Source: an uncultured Acidimicrobiia bacterium (GTDB taxonomy: Bacteria > Actinomycetota > Acidimicrobiia > Spongiisociales > UBA5794). From it: a DNA stretch of 64,000 nt. Below, in pieces: positions 17,711 to 61,412 of the stretch. The DNA is taken from contig CAWGLY010000008.1 of the NCBI GenBank assembly GCA_963823505.1, positions 373,924 through 437,923 on the forward strand, written 5' to 3'. The position numbers and the translations under genes are program-made. Each line of letters starts with the position of its first letter. Position 1 is the stretch's first letter. The notes beneath the pieces were generated by a model that had not been told where the DNA came from, did not search any database, and saw only the letters and a list, made by a program, of their open reading frames with translations.

Positions 17711-18757
17711 ATGGCGGCGAGCAAAGCGCGTGACAAGGTCATGGACCGAGCGGTCCGTGAGCGTCAGGAAGCGAAAGAGCGAATCGAACGAGACACCCTG
17801 TCTCGGTCCCGACGCGATCGCGACCGCAACAAGCTCACCGACGAGCGTGGCCGGCTGACCACCGATCTCGTCAGCCAGTATCTCACCGCCATCGGCGAGT
17901 ATGAGCTGCTCACTGCTGAGAAGGAAGTCGACTACGCCCAGAAGATCGAAGCGGGTCAGGACGCCGGCGAGAAGCTCGAGAAGAAGCAGTTCAAGGGCAA
18001 GGCCGAAGAGATGGCGCTGCGCCGTCGGGTCCGTCACGGCCGTGAGGCCAAAGATGCGTTCCTCACTGCCAACCTCCGCCTCGTCGTCGCCAACGCTCGG
18101 CGCTACGCCAACACGTCCGGCATCGACTTTCTCGACCTGATCCAAGAGGGCAACCTGGGCCTCATCCGTGCCGTCGAGAAGTTCGACTGGCGCAAGGGCT
18201 TCAAGTTCTCCACCTACGCAACATGGTGGATCCGGCAGGCCATCACGCGCGCCATCGCCGACAAGTCTCGGACGGTGCGGATACCTGTACATCTCCACGA
18301 CACCCTTGCGGCCGTTCGTGCCGCCCAGGCCAGCCTCAAGGCCGAGCTCGGTCGCGAGCCCAAGCCCGAAGAGATCGCCGAGGAGGCCGGTGTCAACGTC
18401 GACAAGGTCGAGCTCGCCCTCGGTGTCGCCGACACCGTCTCGCTCGAGCAGCCGGTCGGGGAAGACGGCGCCCAACTGGGTGACTTCATCGAGGACGAAG
18501 ATGCCATCGACCCCGTGAGGGTCACCGAAGAACTCGACATTGCGAACAGCCTGCGCAAGTCCATCGAGCGTCTACCGGTCCGCGAAGGCCGCATCCTGGC
18601 GCTGCGCTACGGCTTCTACGACGGCGTGCCCCGTACTCTCGAAGAGATCGGCGAGGAGTTCAACCTCACCCGAGAGCGCATCCGCCAGCTCGAAAAGCTG
18701 GCGCTGTGCCGCCTTCGCCACCCTTCCTTTGGGATTCGGGAGCAAGACCTGCTCTGA
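17711..18757 (+). CDS. RNA polymerase sigma-70 factor, principal-like (group 1/2), compact with basic N-terminal extension
   Basis: Regions 1.2-4 are conserved ([50 protein letters not shown], region 4 [10 protein letters not shown]). 348 aa. Confidence 0.9.
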
Positions 18758-46333: not shown

Positions 46334-46575
46334 CCGCGGAGGGGAGGGAGACGATGCAGCGCCACCGCCTCGTGGCGCTGCATCCGCGTTGGTGAGATTG
46401 CGGCATAGGCGTGGTGGGCTCGCCCGCCGCGATGCGCCTGTCTCCCCACACGGCGAGCCAGCGTGATGTCGGCTGCAGACTGCACAGCACTTCACCGTGG
46501 CTTAGCGTTCGGCGGCAGTTCCGTTGAGGGTGGTTCCCGCACAGTGTGGATGTACACAAGAGGAGGTACATCCCG

Positions 46576-47388
<813 letters not shown>

Positions 47389-55310: not shown

Positions 55311-57827
55311 TTGCCCATGACACGCACCATCCCCGACACGCCGTCGATCGATGGGCTCGAAGCCAAGTGGCGTGACGCCTGGGAGCGCGACGGCATCTAT
55401 CGCTTCCGGCCGGACGTCGTGCGCAACAGCGTGTACTCGATCGACACTCCGCCACCGACGGTCAGCGGTTCGCTCCACATCGGCCACGTGTTCTCCTACA
55501 CCCACACCGACACCGTTGCCCGCTACAAACGGATGGCAGGCCACGAGGTGTTCTATCCGATGGGCTGGGACGACAACGGCCTTCCGACCGAGCGGCGCGT
55601 GCAGAACTACTACGGCGTCCGCTGCGATCCGGCCCTGCCCCATGACCCGGGTTTTGTGGCTCCCGCAACGCCCTTTGATCCACCGCGGCCGATCAGCCGG
55701 CGCAACTTCGTCGATCTGTGTCTTGGGCTGACCGCCGTCGACGAGCAGGCATTCGAGAATCTGTGGAAGCAACTCGGTCTGTCGATCGACTGGTCCATGA
55801 CCTACACCACCATCGGCGAAGAATCGCGGCGCATCTCCCAGCTCGCCTTCTTGCGCAATCTGGGGCGCGGGGAGGCGTACGTCGCCGATGCGCCGGTGCT
55901 GTGGGACATCGACTTCAGGACCGCCGTTGCCCAGGCTGAGCTCGAAGACCGGGAACGCGCCGGGGCGTATCACCGTATCGCCTTTCACCGCCGCGACGGG
56001 GAGGCGATCTACGTGGAGACCACCCGGCCGGAGTTGATCCCGTCGTGCGTGGCGCTCGTCCATCACCCCGACGACGAGCGGTATGCGGAGATGACCGGCA
56101 CGACGGCCCGGACTCCGCTGTTCGGCGTCGAGGTCCCGGTGCTGTCGCACGAGCTCGCCGAACCGGACAAGGGCACCGGCATCGCAATGATCTGCACCTT
56201 CGGTGACACCACAGACGTCACGTGGTGGCGCGAGCTGGAGCTGCCGTCCCGGGCGGTGATCCAACGGAACGGGCGATTTGTAGAGGACACGCCGGCGTGG
56301 ATCCCCGACGGAACGGCATTCGGGGAACTCGCCGGCAAGACGGTGAACCAGGCGCGGCGCCGTATCGTCGACATGCTGACCGAGAGCGGCGACCTCGACG
56401 GCGAGCCCCGAGTCATCACCCACGCCGTGAAGTTCTATGAGAAGGGCGAGCGGCCCCTCGAAATCGTCTCGAGCCGGCAGTGGTACATCCGCAACGGTGG
56501 CAGAGACGAGCAGCTGCGTGCCCAGCTGCTGGAGCGGGGCTTGGAGCTCGAATGGATTCCCGAGTTCATGCGGGTGCGCTACGAGCACTGGGTGGAGGGG
56601 TTGGCCGGCGACTGGCTGATCTCGCGGCAGCGATACTTCGGGGTGCCGATCCCGCTCTGGTATCCCCTGGATCAGCAGGGCGAGCCGGACTATGCAGCGC
56701 CGATCCCGGCCGATGAGGCGGCCCTCCCCGTGGACCCGGCGAGTGAGCCGGCCCCCGGCTACCGCAACGAGCAGCGTGGGCAGCCCGGCGGGTTTGTTGC
56801 CGATCCCGACGTGATGGACACGTGGGCAACCTCGTCGTTGTCGCCGCTCATCGTCACCGGCTGGGAACGCGATGCTGATCTGTTTGCGCGCACCTACCCG
56901 ATGGATCTGCGACCGCAGTCTCACGACATCATCCGCACCTGGCTCTTCGCCACGCTGACGCGAGCTCACCTCGAGTTGGATGGGCTGCCCTGGTCTCACG
57001 TCGCGATCTCTGGCTGGATCATGGACCCAGACCGCAAGAAGATGTCGAAGTCCAAAGGCAACGCAGTCACCCCGATGGACCTCTTGGACGAGTACGGCTC
57101 CGACGGCGTCCGCTACTGGGCGGCGAGCGGCCGGCCCGGCACCGACACGCTGTTCGACCCGGCTCAGATGAAGGTCGGTCGCCGGCTCGCCATCAAGCTG
57201 CTCAACGCATCCCGGTTCGTGCTCGGGTTCGGCGAGAGTGCCGGGGAGATCACCGAACCGCTGGACCTCTCGATGCTTGCGTCATTGCGCCGGGTGGTGA
57301 CGGAGGCTACTGCGGCCTTCGAGGCCTACGACTACGCCAGGGCGCTCGAGCGCACAGAGGCATCGTTCTGGTCGTGGACCGACGACTACCTCGAGCTGGT
57401 GAAGGTGCGGGCCTACGGCGAAAGCCCCGGAGCGAACTCGGCCCGGTCGGCGCTGGAGCTCTCGCTGTCGGTCTACCTCCGCCTTTTTGCTCCGGTCCTT
57501 CCTTTCGTCACCGAGGAAGTCTGGTCGTGGTGGCGCGACGGTTCGATCCATCGCAGCGCATGGCCAACCGTGGAGGAGCTGCCGGGGATCGGCGATCCGG
57601 GTGTCCTCGAGGCCGTGGCGGAGGTGCTCGGAGAGGTCCGCCGCGCCAAGTCGGAAGCCAAGCGGTCTATGAGGTCGGAGGTCACGGCTGTGTCGATCGC
57701 CGGCAGTGCCGAGCGGCTGGCGGCAGTCCGAGCCGGGGCCGAAGACCTCACGGCCGCCGCAAATGCCGGATCGCTGGAGTTCGTGGACGCGGCCCCTGCG
57801 ATTGTCGTAGAGCTTGCTTCCGAGTGA
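55311..57827 (+). CDS. valS: valine--tRNA ligase (short form lacking C-terminal coiled coil)
   Basis: HIGH (SLHIGHV) and KMSKS motifs. ValS-specific TTRPEL...DERY...KGTG editing region. KLLNASRFVL anticodon-binding region. WLISRQRYFGVPIP. Confidence 0.85.
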   Translation: MPMTRTIPDTPSIDGLEAKWRDAWERDGIYRFRPDVVRNSVYSIDTPPPTVSGSLHIGHVFSYTHTDTVARYKRMAGHEVFYPMGWDDNGLPTERRVQNYYGVRCDPALPHDPGFVAPATPFDPPRPISRRNFVDLCLGLTAVDEQAFENLWKQLGLSIDWSMTYTTIGEESRRISQLAFLRNLGRGEAYVADAPVLWDIDFRTAVAQAELEDRERAGAYHRIAFHRRDGEAIYVETTRPELIPSCVALVHHPDDERYAEMTGTTARTPLFGVEVPVLSHELAEPDKGTGIAMICTFGDTTDVTWWRELELPSRAVIQRNGRFVEDTPAWIPDGTAFGELAGKTVNQARRRIVDMLTESGDLDGEPRVITHAVKFYEKGERPLEIVSSRQWYIRNGGRDEQLRAQLLERGLELEWIPEFMRVRYEHWVEGLAGDWLISRQRYFGVPIPLWYPLDQQGEPDYAAPIPADEAALPVDPASEPAPGYRNEQRGQPGGFVADPDVMDTWATSSLSPLIVTGWERDADLFARTYPMDLRPQSHDIIRTWLFATLTRAHLELDGLPWSHVAISGWIMDPDRKKMSKSKGNAVTPMDLLDEYGSDGVRYWAASGRPGTDTLFDPAQMKVGRRLAIKLLNASRFVLGFGESAGEITEPLDLSMLASLRRVVTEATAAFEAYDYARALERTEASFWSWTDDYLELVKVRAYGESPGANSARSALELSLSVYLRLFAPVLPFVTEEVWSWWRDGSIHRSAWPTVEELPGIGDPGVLEAVAEVLGEVRRAKSEAKRSMRSEVTAVSIAGSAERLAAVRAGAEDLTAAANAGSLEFVDAAPAIVVELASE

Positions 57828-57921
57828 GGTGTTGTGGCGGGGTGCGGGTCGATGGACTTCGCCCCCCAACGCACGGCGTTGCTTCCATCGCGACCCTGAT
57901 CCGCGCATCGCGGCCCAACTA

Positions 57922-58127
57922 GGACACTGCTGGTCAACGTCAGTTCGAGCTCGTGACCGAGGTCGTGACCAGGCACCGTGGCGGACCCGCGAGCCCTCGC
58001 GACGATTTGATCAGCAGTCTCCTGGGACACTGCTGATCAACGTCAGTTCGAGCTCGTGACCGAGGTCGTGACCAGGCACCGTGGCGGACCCGCGAGCCCT
58101 CACGACGATTTGATCAGCAGTCTCCTA
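57922..58127. repeat. two tandem copies of a 103-bp element with 15-bp terminal inverted repeats (MITE/REP-like)
   Basis: Copy 1 at 57922..58024 and copy 2 at 58025..58127 differ at 3 positions. Each copy begins GACACTGCTG(G/A)TCAA and ends TTGATCAGCAGTCTC (revcomp GAGACTGCTGATCAA), giving 14/15 TIR identity. CTAG is present at both outer flanks. Confidence 0.8.
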
Positions 58128-58131
58128 GGGT

Positions 58132-59199
58132 GTGGCGATGACTGAGAGCCCGGCGAACACGCCAGCGCAGGCGACACCGCCCAGCCGGAAGAAGCAGGTG
58201 ATCGCCGGCCTCGTGACGTTGGTCACGCTTGTGATTGTCTTCGGGAGGATCCTGCCGCAGCTCGCCGACTACGGGTCGGCTTGGGAGGCCATCCAGGACA
58301 TGCCGGCGCTTGCGCTCGTCCTGCTGGTCGTGGCGACGATTGGCAACATCATCGTGTACGTCTGGCCATATCAAGCTGCCTTGCCCGGTATCAGCTACGG
58401 CCCGGCATTCGTCGTGCGGCAGACATCGTTCGCCATCAGCAATGGCGTTCCGGCCGGCGGGGCGTTCGGGATCGGCGTGCAATACACCATGCTCGGCGAT
58501 TACGGCTTTGGGGCAGGCCCTGCTGCGGCTGCGATCGGGATCACAAGTGTGTGGAACTCACTGGTCACGTTGGCGCTCCCCGTGCTGGCAGTCATCGGCT
58601 TGGTGATCACAGGCGACCCTCAGGGATGGGTCATCTCGGCCGCAGCGATTGGGCTCGTTGTCGTCGGCGTGATTGTCGGTCTCCTCGTTGTCGTCTTCAG
58701 GAGTGAATCTGCCGCGATTCGCCTTGGGGACTTTGGCGATCGGCTCGTGACGCGGACCGGACGGCTCTTCAAGAAGGACCTGACGCTCAACATCGGCAAC
58801 GCCCTGCTGGATTTCCGGCGGTCGACCATCGACGTTGTGGAGCAACGTGCAGTGGCTATCACCCTGACCAACGTGTTCCAGCAACTCGTCCAGTTCTTCA
58901 TCCTGTTCCTGGCGTTGCGAGGGATCCAGTCGGACGCCGCGATGCAGACGACGCTGGTCGAGACGTTGGTGGCGTACTCCGTTGGTCGGTTGGGGAGTTT
59001 CATCCCGTTGACCCCCGGCGGTCTCGGCACCGTCGATGCGCTGATCACGGCCATCCTCGTCGGATTCGGCGCCGTAGAGTCCGACGCGCTTGCCGCAACC
59101 CTTCTGTGGCGAGCATCCACCTTCTTCCCCCAGATCTTCCTCGGGATCGGAACCTTCCTCTACTGGCGCCACCGCAAGACAAAGTCGCTGGCCGCCTGA
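58132..59199 (+). CDS. UPF0104 / lysylphosphatidylglycerol-synthase-TM-region-like (flippase-like) membrane protein
   Basis: 355 aa with about 8 TM helices. The architecture and conserved Gly/Pro pattern (FIPLTPGGLGTVDA) are typical of PF03706. GTG 58132 or ATG 58138. Confidence 0.7.
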   Translation: MAMTESPANTPAQATPPSRKKQVIAGLVTLVTLVIVFGRILPQLADYGSAWEAIQDMPALALVLLVVATIGNIIVYVWPYQAALPGISYGPAFVVRQTSFAISNGVPAGGAFGIGVQYTMLGDYGFGAGPAAAAIGITSVWNSLVTLALPVLAVIGLVITGDPQGWVISAAAIGLVVVGVIVGLLVVVFRSESAAIRLGDFGDRLVTRTGRLFKKDLTLNIGNALLDFRRSTIDVVEQRAVAITLTNVFQQLVQFFILFLALRGIQSDAAMQTTLVETLVAYSVGRLGSFIPLTPGGLGTVDALITAILVGFGAVESDALAATLLWRASTFFPQIFLGIGTFLYWRHRKTKSLAA

Positions 59200-59309
59200 G
59201 GAGTTGTTCCCCAATCCGTGGACGCCGTCGTCGGCCTTGCGGCGTTCAGGCCGTTCGGGTCGCAGCGAGCTGCAGCGGGCTTGCAGTCGCCGAGTGGCAC
59301 AATGCTGCC

Positions 59310-60008
59310 GTGTTTCCTTTCCTGCCCGGTCCTCTGCTGTTCGACCAGATCGGCGAGACCGATTGTGAGGCGATCGGTGACGGCTGGCTCGCCCAGCCTG
59401 CCAACGCGATCTCGAGCGGCGCCTACGTCCTGTTTGGTGCCTGGATCCTGGTCCACGCGTTCCGCAACCCCGCTGGAGAGCGCGCCACCCAGCTGACCTA
59501 CGGGGCCGTCCTGGCTGCCGTCGGGATCGGGAGCATTGCGTTCCACGGGCCGATGCCTGCGGGGGCACGTCTGCTTCACGACCTGACCATCGCCGCGGTC
59601 TTTGCGCTGATTGCAGCCAGGGGCGTCGGCACTCTGCGGCGGTGGGGGGAGACGAAGGTCCTTGGGCTGTTCGCCGGCATGACGACACTGATCGGTGTTG
59701 CGATGGCCATCAGCCCAGAAGGCGGAATCGCCGTCGCTGCGATCGTCGGTGTAGCTGCGTTGGGACTCGAAATCTACTTGTACCGGTCGGGTCGCCGCCA
59801 GCGTTTCTCCTCCACCCTGGTGCGCTGGCTGGCTGGAATCGTGGCCCTGCTCCTGGCGGGTGCCTTGATCAACGTGCTGGGTCGGACGGGTGGTCCACTC
59901 TGCGACCCGGACAGCGTGTGGCAGGGCCACGCTGCCTGGCACGTACTCACCGCCGCCGCCTTCGGGCTCTACGGCTACCGATCGTTTCTCACCGAGCGGT
60001 CCGTCTGA
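59310..60008 (+). CDS. 7-TM ceramidase-like / PAQR-like putative membrane hydrolase
   Basis: GTG at 59310, in frame inside the supplied 59106..60008 ORF. Candidate metal-site residues are spaced as in alkaline ceramidases: DCE...N.ISS, FHGPMP, HD, GHAAWHVLTAAA (HxxxH). Family assignment is low confidence. Confidence 0.45.
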   Translation: MFPFLPGPLLFDQIGETDCEAIGDGWLAQPANAISSGAYVLFGAWILVHAFRNPAGERATQLTYGAVLAAVGIGSIAFHGPMPAGARLLHDLTIAAVFALIAARGVGTLRRWGETKVLGLFAGMTTLIGVAMAISPEGGIAVAAIVGVAALGLEIYLYRSGRRQRFSSTLVRWLAGIVALLLAGALINVLGRTGGPLCDPDSVWQGHAAWHVLTAAAFGLYGYRSFLTERSV

Positions 60009-60086
60009 TCGGAGCGCCGTGGACGTCCGCACTCGCGCGCTCGGTATGCGACCATGCCAGCTCCTGAGCGTGGTCGAGTGGAGCGC

Positions 60087-61412
60087 ATGACCCAACCGAC
60101 GTCCCATTCTTCGCCACGTCCGCGAGCTTTCCAGCGGCTCATTGCGAGAGGCGCTCGCCTGCTGGCACGCGGCATCTACCGGTCCGTCGAGGTCGACAAT
60201 CCCGAGTCCGGGTGGAGCTGGCACAGCGCCATCCTCGTCGCCAATCACCCAACCGGCTTCTCCGATCCTGCCCTTCTCCTCGGGTTGCTGGAGCGCAGCC
60301 CGCGGTTTCTGGCCAAAGCGACGCTGTGGAACAACGGGGCCGCCGGATGGTTCCTCGATCACCTCGGTGCCATCCCGGTGTATCGCGCCGAGGACGGTTC
60401 GACGGACCGCAACGCCGAGATGTTTCGTGCTGCCTTTGAAGCGCTGCGACAAGGCCATTTGATCGCTCTGTTCCCCGAAGGGGGAGTGAGCGACACTCCC
60501 GCCATCCGCCCGATCAAGACGGGTGCCGCCCGCCTCGCCCTCGGCGCCCAGGCAGCCGGTGTCACGGGCCTACGGGTCGTACCGGTCGGCATCCATTTCG
60601 AGGACAAAGCGGCACTGCGCAGCCGGGCGTTCGTGCAAGTAGGTGACGTGCTCGATCTCGACACGGAGGTGCCGCCGCCTGCGGTTGGTGCCGACTCGAG
60701 AGACCCGGTGGATCGACTGACCGACGAGATCGAGGTGCGGCTGCGGGCGGCTGCTCCCGACTACGACACCGACGAGGAAGCGCGCGATCTTGCATACGCT
60801 GCGGAGATTGCCCTGGGCGAGCCTGGACCAAACCGGGTGTCATTTGCAGACCGGCAGCAGGCGGCCGCCCGGCTGGCACGAGCCGAGCCCGCGGTGCGTT
60901 CGGGCGCTCTCGATGCTGCATATCGCTACCGCGCCGCTGCGCAGCGTGTTGGTGTCGATGACCGTGACGTCTTGCTGGCCCAAGGCGGGGCGAAGCTCCG
61001 TCGCAGGCTGGCCGGGCTGCTGGTGATGCTGATCGTCCTGGCGCCGTTTGCCCTCGTGGGCGTCGTGATGAACATCGTTCCCGTCGGAGGGCTGCTGGTC
61101 GCCATGCGGCACAGCCACGACGCAATGACCGCAGCCACGGTGCGGATGGTGGCAGCCGTGGGTGCGTTCCTGATCGTGTGGCTGGTCTGGGCCGGATTGG
61201 CGTGGAGCGTTTGGGACTGGAGGATGGGTCTGGTGGCGATCATCGCAGCGCCCGTCTACGGCGCCGTCGCCCTCTTCACCATCGACCGAGCCGTCAGCTG
61301 GTGGCGCGACTGGACAGGGCTGCGCAGAGCCGGTCAGGTCGGCGGCAGGCTCGATGCGTTGCTTGCCGAGCGCGCCACGCTGGTCTCGACCCTCGAGGCG
61401 GCGATGGTATGA
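60087..61412 (+). CDS. 1-acyl-sn-glycerol-3-phosphate acyltransferase-family protein (PlsC-like) with extra C-terminal 4-TM domain
   Basis: Acyltransferase motif I NHPTGFSDP (HX4D). Motif III FPEGG. The C-terminal about 150 aa are hydrophobic. Confidence 0.75.
   Translation: MTQPTSHSSPRPRAFQRLIARGARLLARGIYRSVEVDNPESGWSWHSAILVANHPTGFSDPALLLGLLERSPRFLAKATLWNNGAAGWFLDHLGAIPVYRAEDGSTDRNAEMFRAAFEALRQGHLIALFPEGGVSDTPAIRPIKTGAARLALGAQAAGVTGLRVVPVGIHFEDKAALRSRAFVQVGDVLDLDTEVPPPAVGADSRDPVDRLTDEIEVRLRAAAPDYDTDEEARDLAYAAEIALGEPGPNRVSFADRQQAAARLARAEPAVRSGALDAAYRYRAAAQRVGVDDRDVLLAQGGAKLRRRLAGLLVMLIVLAPFALVGVVMNIVPVGGLLVAMRHSHDAMTAATVRMVAAVGAFLIVWLVWAGLAWSVWDWRMGLVAIIAAPVYGAVALFTIDRAVSWWRDWTGLRRAGQVGGRLDALLAERATLVSTLEAAMV

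Follow-up and report, generated by a model that had tools for sequence, protein, structure and literature searches.

Tandem MITE dimers, targeting of CTAG and insertions of hairpins between genes are all already known, and mycobacterial MIRUs are tandem direct repeats of ~50-100 bp that lie in intergenic spacers. Previous studies have reported that IS5 duplicates Py-T-A-Pu on insertion, most often CTAG, and that this under-represented tetranucleotide is the IS5 target (PMC5493358). According to Tenzen & Ohtsubo (1991), as cited in PMC2170065, IS630 prefers TA within 5'-CTAG-3'. The Correia elements of Neisseria and the RUP elements of Streptococcus pneumoniae, which are ~100-150 bp long, can be co-transcribed with neighbouring genes (PMC10969869 and general knowledge).

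In the present study, we analyzed a tandem pair of 103-bp units in a 64,000-nucleotide stretch of DNA from an uncultured Acidimicrobiia bacterium (the window, 64 kb) and compared it with these systems. The pair resembles IS5 in its CTAG target and duplication and in having termini of the form GGA-NNN-TG-NN-GA-N-CAA; in addition, a related terminus from a sister strain (locus L001), GGAGGGTGTTGAACAATCC, resembles the IS5 right repeat GGAAGGTGCGAACAAGTCC. It differs from IS5 in that the element is 99 bp long and carries neither a transposase nor a recognisable IS5 interior, the window repeat is only weakly IS5-like, and the host is a high-GC member of the Acidimicrobiia and not an enterobacterium. 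With Correia and RUP it shares a short, non-coding, hairpin-forming body that is bounded by inverted repeats, lies between genes and is flanked by a short duplication (PMC10969869 and general knowledge), whereas the sequences, hosts and parent IS families are other ones, and those elements have tens to hundreds of copies compared with two loci here. MITEs of the IS630/Tc1-mariner type are similar in their insertion at TA inside CTAG, and a parse with 16-bp repeats and TA fits the pair; however, the related L001 terminus looks like IS5. The mycobacterial MIRU/VNTR repeats are likewise tandem direct repeats of ~50-100 bp in the intergenic spacer of an actinobacterial operon-like gene pair, but MIRUs have no terminal inverted repeats or target duplications, and the unit here also occurs singly at another locus.

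Anatomy and gene context of the tandem pair

To describe the repeat, Tandem Repeats Finder was used, and it reported a period of 103, 2.0 copies and 98% matches at 57922-58126. The two 103-bp direct copies are arranged head-to-tail within 57922-58127 and are 97% identical. Only three positions distinguish the copies, 57933, 57999 and 58024, where copy 1 has G and copy 2 has A throughout, so that the position comparison and Tandem Repeats Finder both confirmed the two near-identical direct copies with three mismatches of the preliminary description. The same description had given an element of 103 bp, which holds for the period; if 4 bp are counted as duplication, 99 bp remain for the element itself. 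Copy 1 (GACACTGCTGGTCAA...TTGATCAGCAGTCTC) occupies 57923-58021 on the plus strand and has derived G's at 57933 and 57999, and copy 2 occupies 58026-58124 on the same strand and is nearest the family consensus according to the repeat anatomy and the comparison with the protein P0241 described below. The tetranucleotide CTGG at 58022-58025 joins the copies and is read as a shared middle CTAG with one A>G change. Along the DNA, the order is CCCAA-CTAG-(GACACTGCTGGTCAA...TTGATCAGCAGTCTC)-CTGG-(GACACTGCTGATCAA...TTGATCAGCAGTCTC)-CTAG-GGTGTGGCGATG, and a 5-bp CTAGG microhomology flanks the unit.

An inverted-repeat search located the left and right terminal inverted repeats at 57923-57937 and 58007-58021 in copy 1 and at 58026-58040 and 58110-58124 in copy 2, all on the plus strand. 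These repeats (GGACACTGCTGATCAA / TTGATCAGCAGTCTCC) have arms of 15-16 nt that are 94% complementary, with 14/15 or 15/16 matches, and the 16-nt arms confirmed the terminal inverted repeats that had been claimed earlier. The internal direct repeat and the GAGCTC palindrome of the unit were also found as described, TCGTGACC being present twice and GAGCTC once in each unit. The unit is shorter than ~500 bp and has no coding capacity. Open frames do occur in it, but the reading frame changes from one copy to the next owing to the 103-bp period. A coding role for the unit was rejected because no protein-family or homologue support was obtained except for the shadow ORF P0241. Neither a further copy of the unit nor other MITE-like inverted repeats were found within the 64-kb window.

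CTAG is present at 57919-57922, flanking copy 1, and again at 58125-58128, to the right of copy 2. The CTAG at both outer borders (57919 and 58125) had been proposed as a possible target-site duplication, and its presence was confirmed and agrees with such a duplication. In the 64-kb window, we found 14 CTAG, compared with 61.8 +/- 7.6 expected from dinucleotide-preserving shuffles, which is a depletion of about fourfold. Two of the 14 form the exact outer borders of the pair, a coincidence far beyond chance, and since CTAG is scarce in the window, it represents a highly specific landing site. The CTAG sites of the window include 578, 3403, 17685 and 63403. The arrangement at the pair is CTAG...CTGG...CTAG, in which the junction reads CTGG and not CTAG. 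The flanking CTAG conforms to the 4-bp Py-T-A-Pu duplication of the IS5 group; a duplication of TA inside CTAG, as in the IS630 type, fits the sequence equally well and is indistinguishable from a duplication of CTAG.

The pair lies between two genes on the plus strand. Upstream is valS, which encodes valine-tRNA ligase (55311-57827; PF00133/PF08264) and ends with its stop codon 94 nt before the pair, and downstream is the gene for an LPG_synthase_TM / YbhN-like membrane protein (58138-59199; PF03706). The preliminary description stated that the second copy ends 4 nt before the start codon of this gene. Our results gave 10 nt instead, because a 99%-identical JGI protein (P0001) begins at the ATG equivalent to 58138, which is the likely start; the right-hand CTAG itself is 9 nt upstream of the start codon. 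Downstream of the ybhN-like gene lie ceramidase-like and acyltransferase genes. They and the YbhN-like (LPG_synthase_TM) gene are grouped both in the window (58138-61412) and at L001, and all three families are also present within ~6 kb in a distant relative (L028:843-7065), which suggests a conserved membrane-lipid remodelling cluster. Among relatives of the ybhN-like gene at 63-79% identity, none adjoins valS, so that the relatives, lacking the valS/ybhN-like synteny, offer no conserved spacer for a dedicated regulatory RNA. The closest match to the ValS C-terminus among 5.8 billion proteins was 66-72% identical. This search, made for the left flank of the sister strain, returned no sister contig, and a best ValS match of ~70% indicates that the lineage is poorly sampled. 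The names carried by homologues assign the organism to the Acidimicrobiia.

Two other features were observed elsewhere in the window. At 47091-47373, a 45-bp tandem repeat of ~6.3 copies (88% matches) consists of GAT/GAC-rich triplets and lies inside long ORFs on both strands (46546-47388 on the plus strand and 46492-47382 on the minus strand); it may encode an Asp-rich repeat protein. At 18644-18728 on the minus strand, ARAGORN called an 85-nt tRNA-Glu(ttc) inside the ORF of a primary sigma factor (17711-18757, plus strand). Since Rfam gave no tRNA there at gathering score, this call is probably a false positive.

Further copies and the sister strain

To find the unit through its translations, the four stop-free frames were concatenated and searched against 5.8 billion proteins. 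One protein was matched, P0241 (192 aa, E = 1.4e-10), which is encoded on an NCBI/ENA contig of 2,371,360 bp. Residues 17-46 of P0241 (ETADQIVVRARGSATLPGHDLGHELELTLI) were identical to the minus-strand translation of the unit at 29/30 positions, this copy being known by translation only, and the flanks on both sides were unrelated to the window. At both internal positions that differ between the window copies (57933 and 57999), P0241 has the state of copy 2; these shared states indicate that copy 2 is the consensus and copy 1 is derived. Proteins of the window were present in this collection on an NCBI/ENA contig of 537,819 bp, and the results suggested that P0241 and the window may come from one assembly. 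The preliminary description had named uniqueness of the unit to this locus as a reason to give up its reading, and within the collections searched the reading survived through a single extra copy.

A profile search of 1.84 billion representative proteins revealed no further ORF bearing the element and returned two short ORFs homologous to the flank of P0241. One of them, P0258, lies on the strand opposite to the coding sequence of a ThiS-family protein (PF02597, E = 3e-6) whose last residues are ...VILQAVSGG. Residues 77-165 of P0241 correspond to the codon-aligned antisense of a ThiS-family gene, with 68/89 positions compatible compared with 19% by chance, and codon 76 of P0241 is compatible with the stop codon of the ThiS-like gene. 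By this antisense codon mapping, a ThiS/MoaD-like gene ends ~75 nt before the second copy, and the orientation of the copy towards its upstream gene agrees with that seen in the window. Both known copies are therefore located 75-94 nt past a stop codon, with one common orientation. The candidate reading of the P0241 flank as an rRNA shadow ORF was rejected, as the flank is antisense to the ThiS-family gene. At the far end of its copy of the unit, P0241 has the residues LINTLLA, which are compatible with TTGATCAACACCCTCCTAG, a form that stands between those of the window and L001 termini. At one flank of the P0241 copy, CTAG would be an in-frame stop codon and is therefore impossible; a CTNG duplication is compatible there. 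It was also observed that P0241, P0258 and P0259 are all shadow ORFs that are the codon-aligned antisense of ThiS/MoaD-family genes, and that at L154:2881-3300 the antisense ORF is among the called genes while the ThiS-like ORF itself is not called.

The sister-strain locus L001 (JGI 3300060480, contig Ga0589154_00142461) carries a ybhN-like gene with 99% protein identity, and its contig ends 62 bp upstream of this gene. From CTCCTAGGG onward, L001 and the window differ by 1 mismatch in ~135 nt. The identity starts at the right-hand CTAG or, strictly, 3 nt earlier, at CTC. Directly upstream of CTAG, the identity falls to ~67% over 30 nt with a 3-nt indel, and the sequences are unalignable farther up. 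In L001 (1-54), a different but related terminus, GGAGGGTGTTGAACAA (GGAGGGTGTTGAACAATCC...), abuts the same CTAG. Read inward, the L001 terminus is GGAGGGTGTTGAACAATCCGGG, and it matched the window right repeat GGAGACTGCTGATCAA at 12/16 positions, with 1/5000 shuffles as good. The occurrence of related termini at one CTAG indicates that the site holds two members of one terminus family in two near-identical strains. An empty site (CCCAACTAGGGTGTGG) was not recovered, as L001 carries another terminus in its place and its contig ends 62 bp upstream of the gene. The element within which the L001 contig ends is likely to be either a multi-copy IS or a member of a second MITE subfamily, and we infer that such an end is the expected effect of a multi-copy repeat on short-read assembly.

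DNA collections were searched with patterns and by BLASTN. The inverted-repeat-pair pattern, ACTGCTGRTCAA N50-80 TTGAYCAGCAGT, in which 12-nt cores stand 50-80 nt apart, gave 0 matches in 185,579 species-representative genomes. Its 5 matches in JGI metagenome contigs were all unrelated long palindromes and were rejected. A degenerate single-terminus pattern gave 19 matches in the species genomes compared with ~17 expected by chance according to a hand estimate, and 0 matches in IMG/VR viral contigs. A shorter pattern of the L001-type terminus returned noise in the viral contigs, with no CTAG-flanked or paired sites. BLASTN of the pair gave no match in plasmids or phages, and BLASTN of the L001 terminus gave no match in plasmids. 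The genome of the window is itself absent from the DNA collections scanned, as judged from the scans missing the window, and the lack of copies across these collections indicates that the element is not widespread. Exact look-ups of the ybhN-like protein, with either start codon, and of another window protein gave no record, so that no independent assembly of the locus was obtained. In the literature searched, a string search for the terminal repeats found irrelevant primers only, and no MITE paper mentioning Acidimicrobiia was found.

The matches of the degenerate single-terminus pattern included some in Ilumatobacteraceae, which were rejected because they are coding sequence for a GTLLINVSRG dehydrogenase-type motif and not the element. 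In two Ilumatobacteraceae MAGs (L018:6513-6534 and L019:593-614), a 20-23-nt exact match to the left end of the element is coding (...GTLLINVSRGELLDE...). As GTLLINVSRGELLDE resembles a 2-hydroxyacid-dehydrogenase-type motif, it was noted that a high-GC coding motif can mimic a terminal repeat.

Predicted folding and possible effects on expression

The preliminary description had named RNA folding of a single unit as a check, and such folding yielded a stable hairpin. The unit was predicted to form a long hairpin on either strand, with ~-48 kcal/mol and z = -3.3 as RNA and z = -5.2 as DNA. The predicted fold consists of a terminal stem of ~20 bp that carries two small internal hairpins. In a transcript reading through from valS, or in a long 5' UTR, the whole pair was predicted to reach -156 kcal/mol over 321 nt (z = -4.1), and an extended stem (inverted-repeat I1) takes in the first G's of a Shine-Dalgarno-like motif, GGGTG. 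In Rfam 15, the best scores for the pair region were 13-20 bits compared with gathering thresholds of 40-197 bits, and only noise was obtained even at E = 10; over the whole window, nothing was found at gathering score. Scans for sigma-70 promoters and intrinsic terminators likewise found nothing in the element. The spacer was also predicted to form a GC-rich stem-loop at 57835-57868, just past the valS stop. This stem-loop may be a native 3' structure of valS, and its lack of a T-run explains why the terminator scan missed it.

If a transcript started from valS or from a local promoter, it would carry two stable stem-loops directly 5' of the ybhN-like start. Judging from the predicted fold, these stem-loops could change termination, mRNA stability or translation. 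The TAG of the right-hand CTAG is part of a TAGGGT hexamer, which is -10-like and ends 7 nt before the ATG. From general knowledge of actinobacterial promoters, we speculate that TAGGGT could serve as the -10 box of a leaderless transcript and that the duplication would have preserved it. A broader proposal is that co-option has turned the element family into an exchangeable regulatory module, combining a terminator or insulator with promoter-proximal hairpins, for which CTAG would be a recurrent landing pad. We regard this proposal as quite improbable. If it were true, the expression of the membrane-lipid gene cluster would be rewired, and the element would not be neutral selfish DNA.

Possible parent transposon and proposed origin of the pair

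To evaluate the relationship with IS5, we took the terminal sequences of IS5 in E. coli K-12 (GGAAGGTGCGAATAAG and GGAAGGTGCGAACAAG) and compared them with the repeats. The L001 terminus matched the IS5 right repeat at 16 positions over 22 nt, a score reached by 0/5000 shuffles, while the likeness of the window repeats to the IS5 right repeat was weak, ~1% of shuffles being as good. The IS5-group terminus form that was compared was GGAAGGTGCGAA(C/T)AAG. No IS5-like transposase was found in the window or in the fetched loci. On these results, we consider it probable that the pair is a lineage-restricted, CTAG-targeting MITE in a tandem dimer, most likely derived from, and mobilised in trans by, a DDE transposase of the IS5 group. 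The preliminary description had offered a MITE/REP-type element, and the two parts of that reading fared differently. The inverted repeats, the duplicated rare CTAG, the non-coding body, the second locus and the terminus of the sister strain support a MITE, whereas the target duplication, and arms that are not REP palindromes, argue against a REP.

Several other explanations were weighed against the IS5-derived MITE. A MITE with an IS630/Tc1-mariner parent would be 101-103 bp long, with 16-bp repeats (GGACACTG.../GGAGACTG...) and a duplication of TA only at CTAG. The sequence parses equally well as C-TA|GGAC...CTCC|TA-G, which makes IS630 a live alternative for the parent, and the preference of IS630 for TA in 5'-CTAG-3' is documented (Tenzen & Ohtsubo 1991, cited in PMC2170065). 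Under the TA parse, the junction reads TG and not TA; one and the same mutation is required by this parse and by the CTAG parse, so that the junction does not discriminate between the parents. Because the L001 terminus resembles the IS5 inverted repeat (0/5000 shuffles) and IS5 duplicates the whole CTAG, an IS630 parent was nevertheless judged unlikely. The REP/REPIN-type element, mobilised by a RAYT (IS200/IS605-like Y1) transposase, would account for a ~100-nt hairpin in extragenic space. Here, however, a direct duplication of a palindromic target flanks the pair, the arms are not REP palindromes, and the fold is a terminal stem with two small internal hairpins; neither a RAYT gene nor a high copy number was seen, there being no other copy in the 64-kb window. 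This explanation has almost no probability in our assessment.

The pair could also have arisen without any mobility, by local tandem duplication of a native intergenic hairpin, for example from the valS terminator region, as a minisatellite or MIRU-type VNTR produced through CTAGG slippage. This would agree with the presence of only two, adjacent copies in the window, with the 5-bp CTAGG microhomology that flanks the unit, and with the absence of the element from every large DNA collection scanned, among which the source genome is not included. It would not explain the near-identical unit that lies beside a ThiS-like gene with unrelated flanks, or the abrupt loss of identity at the same CTAG in the sister strain, where a different but related terminus is present, and a terminal inverted repeat together with a rare palindromic target is unexpected for a native terminator. 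Local duplication was therefore considered distinctly unlikely. The preliminary description had further suggested a structured regulatory RNA or attenuator. Such a cis-regulatory RNA would serve the valS/ybhN-like pair specifically, as an attenuator, a terminator or a 5'-UTR element. The stable predicted fold, the end of the pair 10 nt before the start with an extended stem reaching the GGGTG Shine-Dalgarno-like motif, and the shared orientation of both known copies, each of which lies 75-94 nt past a stop codon, are in its favour. On the other hand, there was no Rfam match beyond noise, even at E = 10, another sequence replaces the unit upstream of the 99%-identical sister gene, the valS/ybhN-like synteny is absent in relatives, and the unit also lies beside the unrelated ThiS-like gene. 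The results thus left this suggestion unsupported, and we regard such an RNA as very improbable.

For the IS5-derived MITE, the proposed history would begin with the insertion in trans of a single 99-bp element into a CTAG 9 nt upstream of the ybhN-like ATG, with duplication of CTAG. The dimer would then have been formed either through a second insertion into a regenerated CTAG or through slippage or unequal exchange involving the two direct repeats CTAGG. Insertion would leave a CTAG at either end of the element, where few other CTAG sites are available, and a further element entering such a flanking site would give a dimer that shares its middle tetranucleotide. Later, the middle CTAG would have mutated to CTGG, and copy 1 would have gained two further A>G changes.

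As an example of well-known selfish DNA, the pair is new but ordinary and opens no new mechanism. It indicates that CTAG is a hot target in a genome that avoids CTAG. The repeat probably breaks short-read assemblies, since the sister-strain contig ends inside it, and the site that it marks, immediately before a membrane-lipid gene cluster, varies between strains. If the reading as an IS5-derived MITE is true, the pair would represent a new MITE family and would imply an IS5-like partner in a poorly sampled, uncultured lineage of the Acidimicrobiia.
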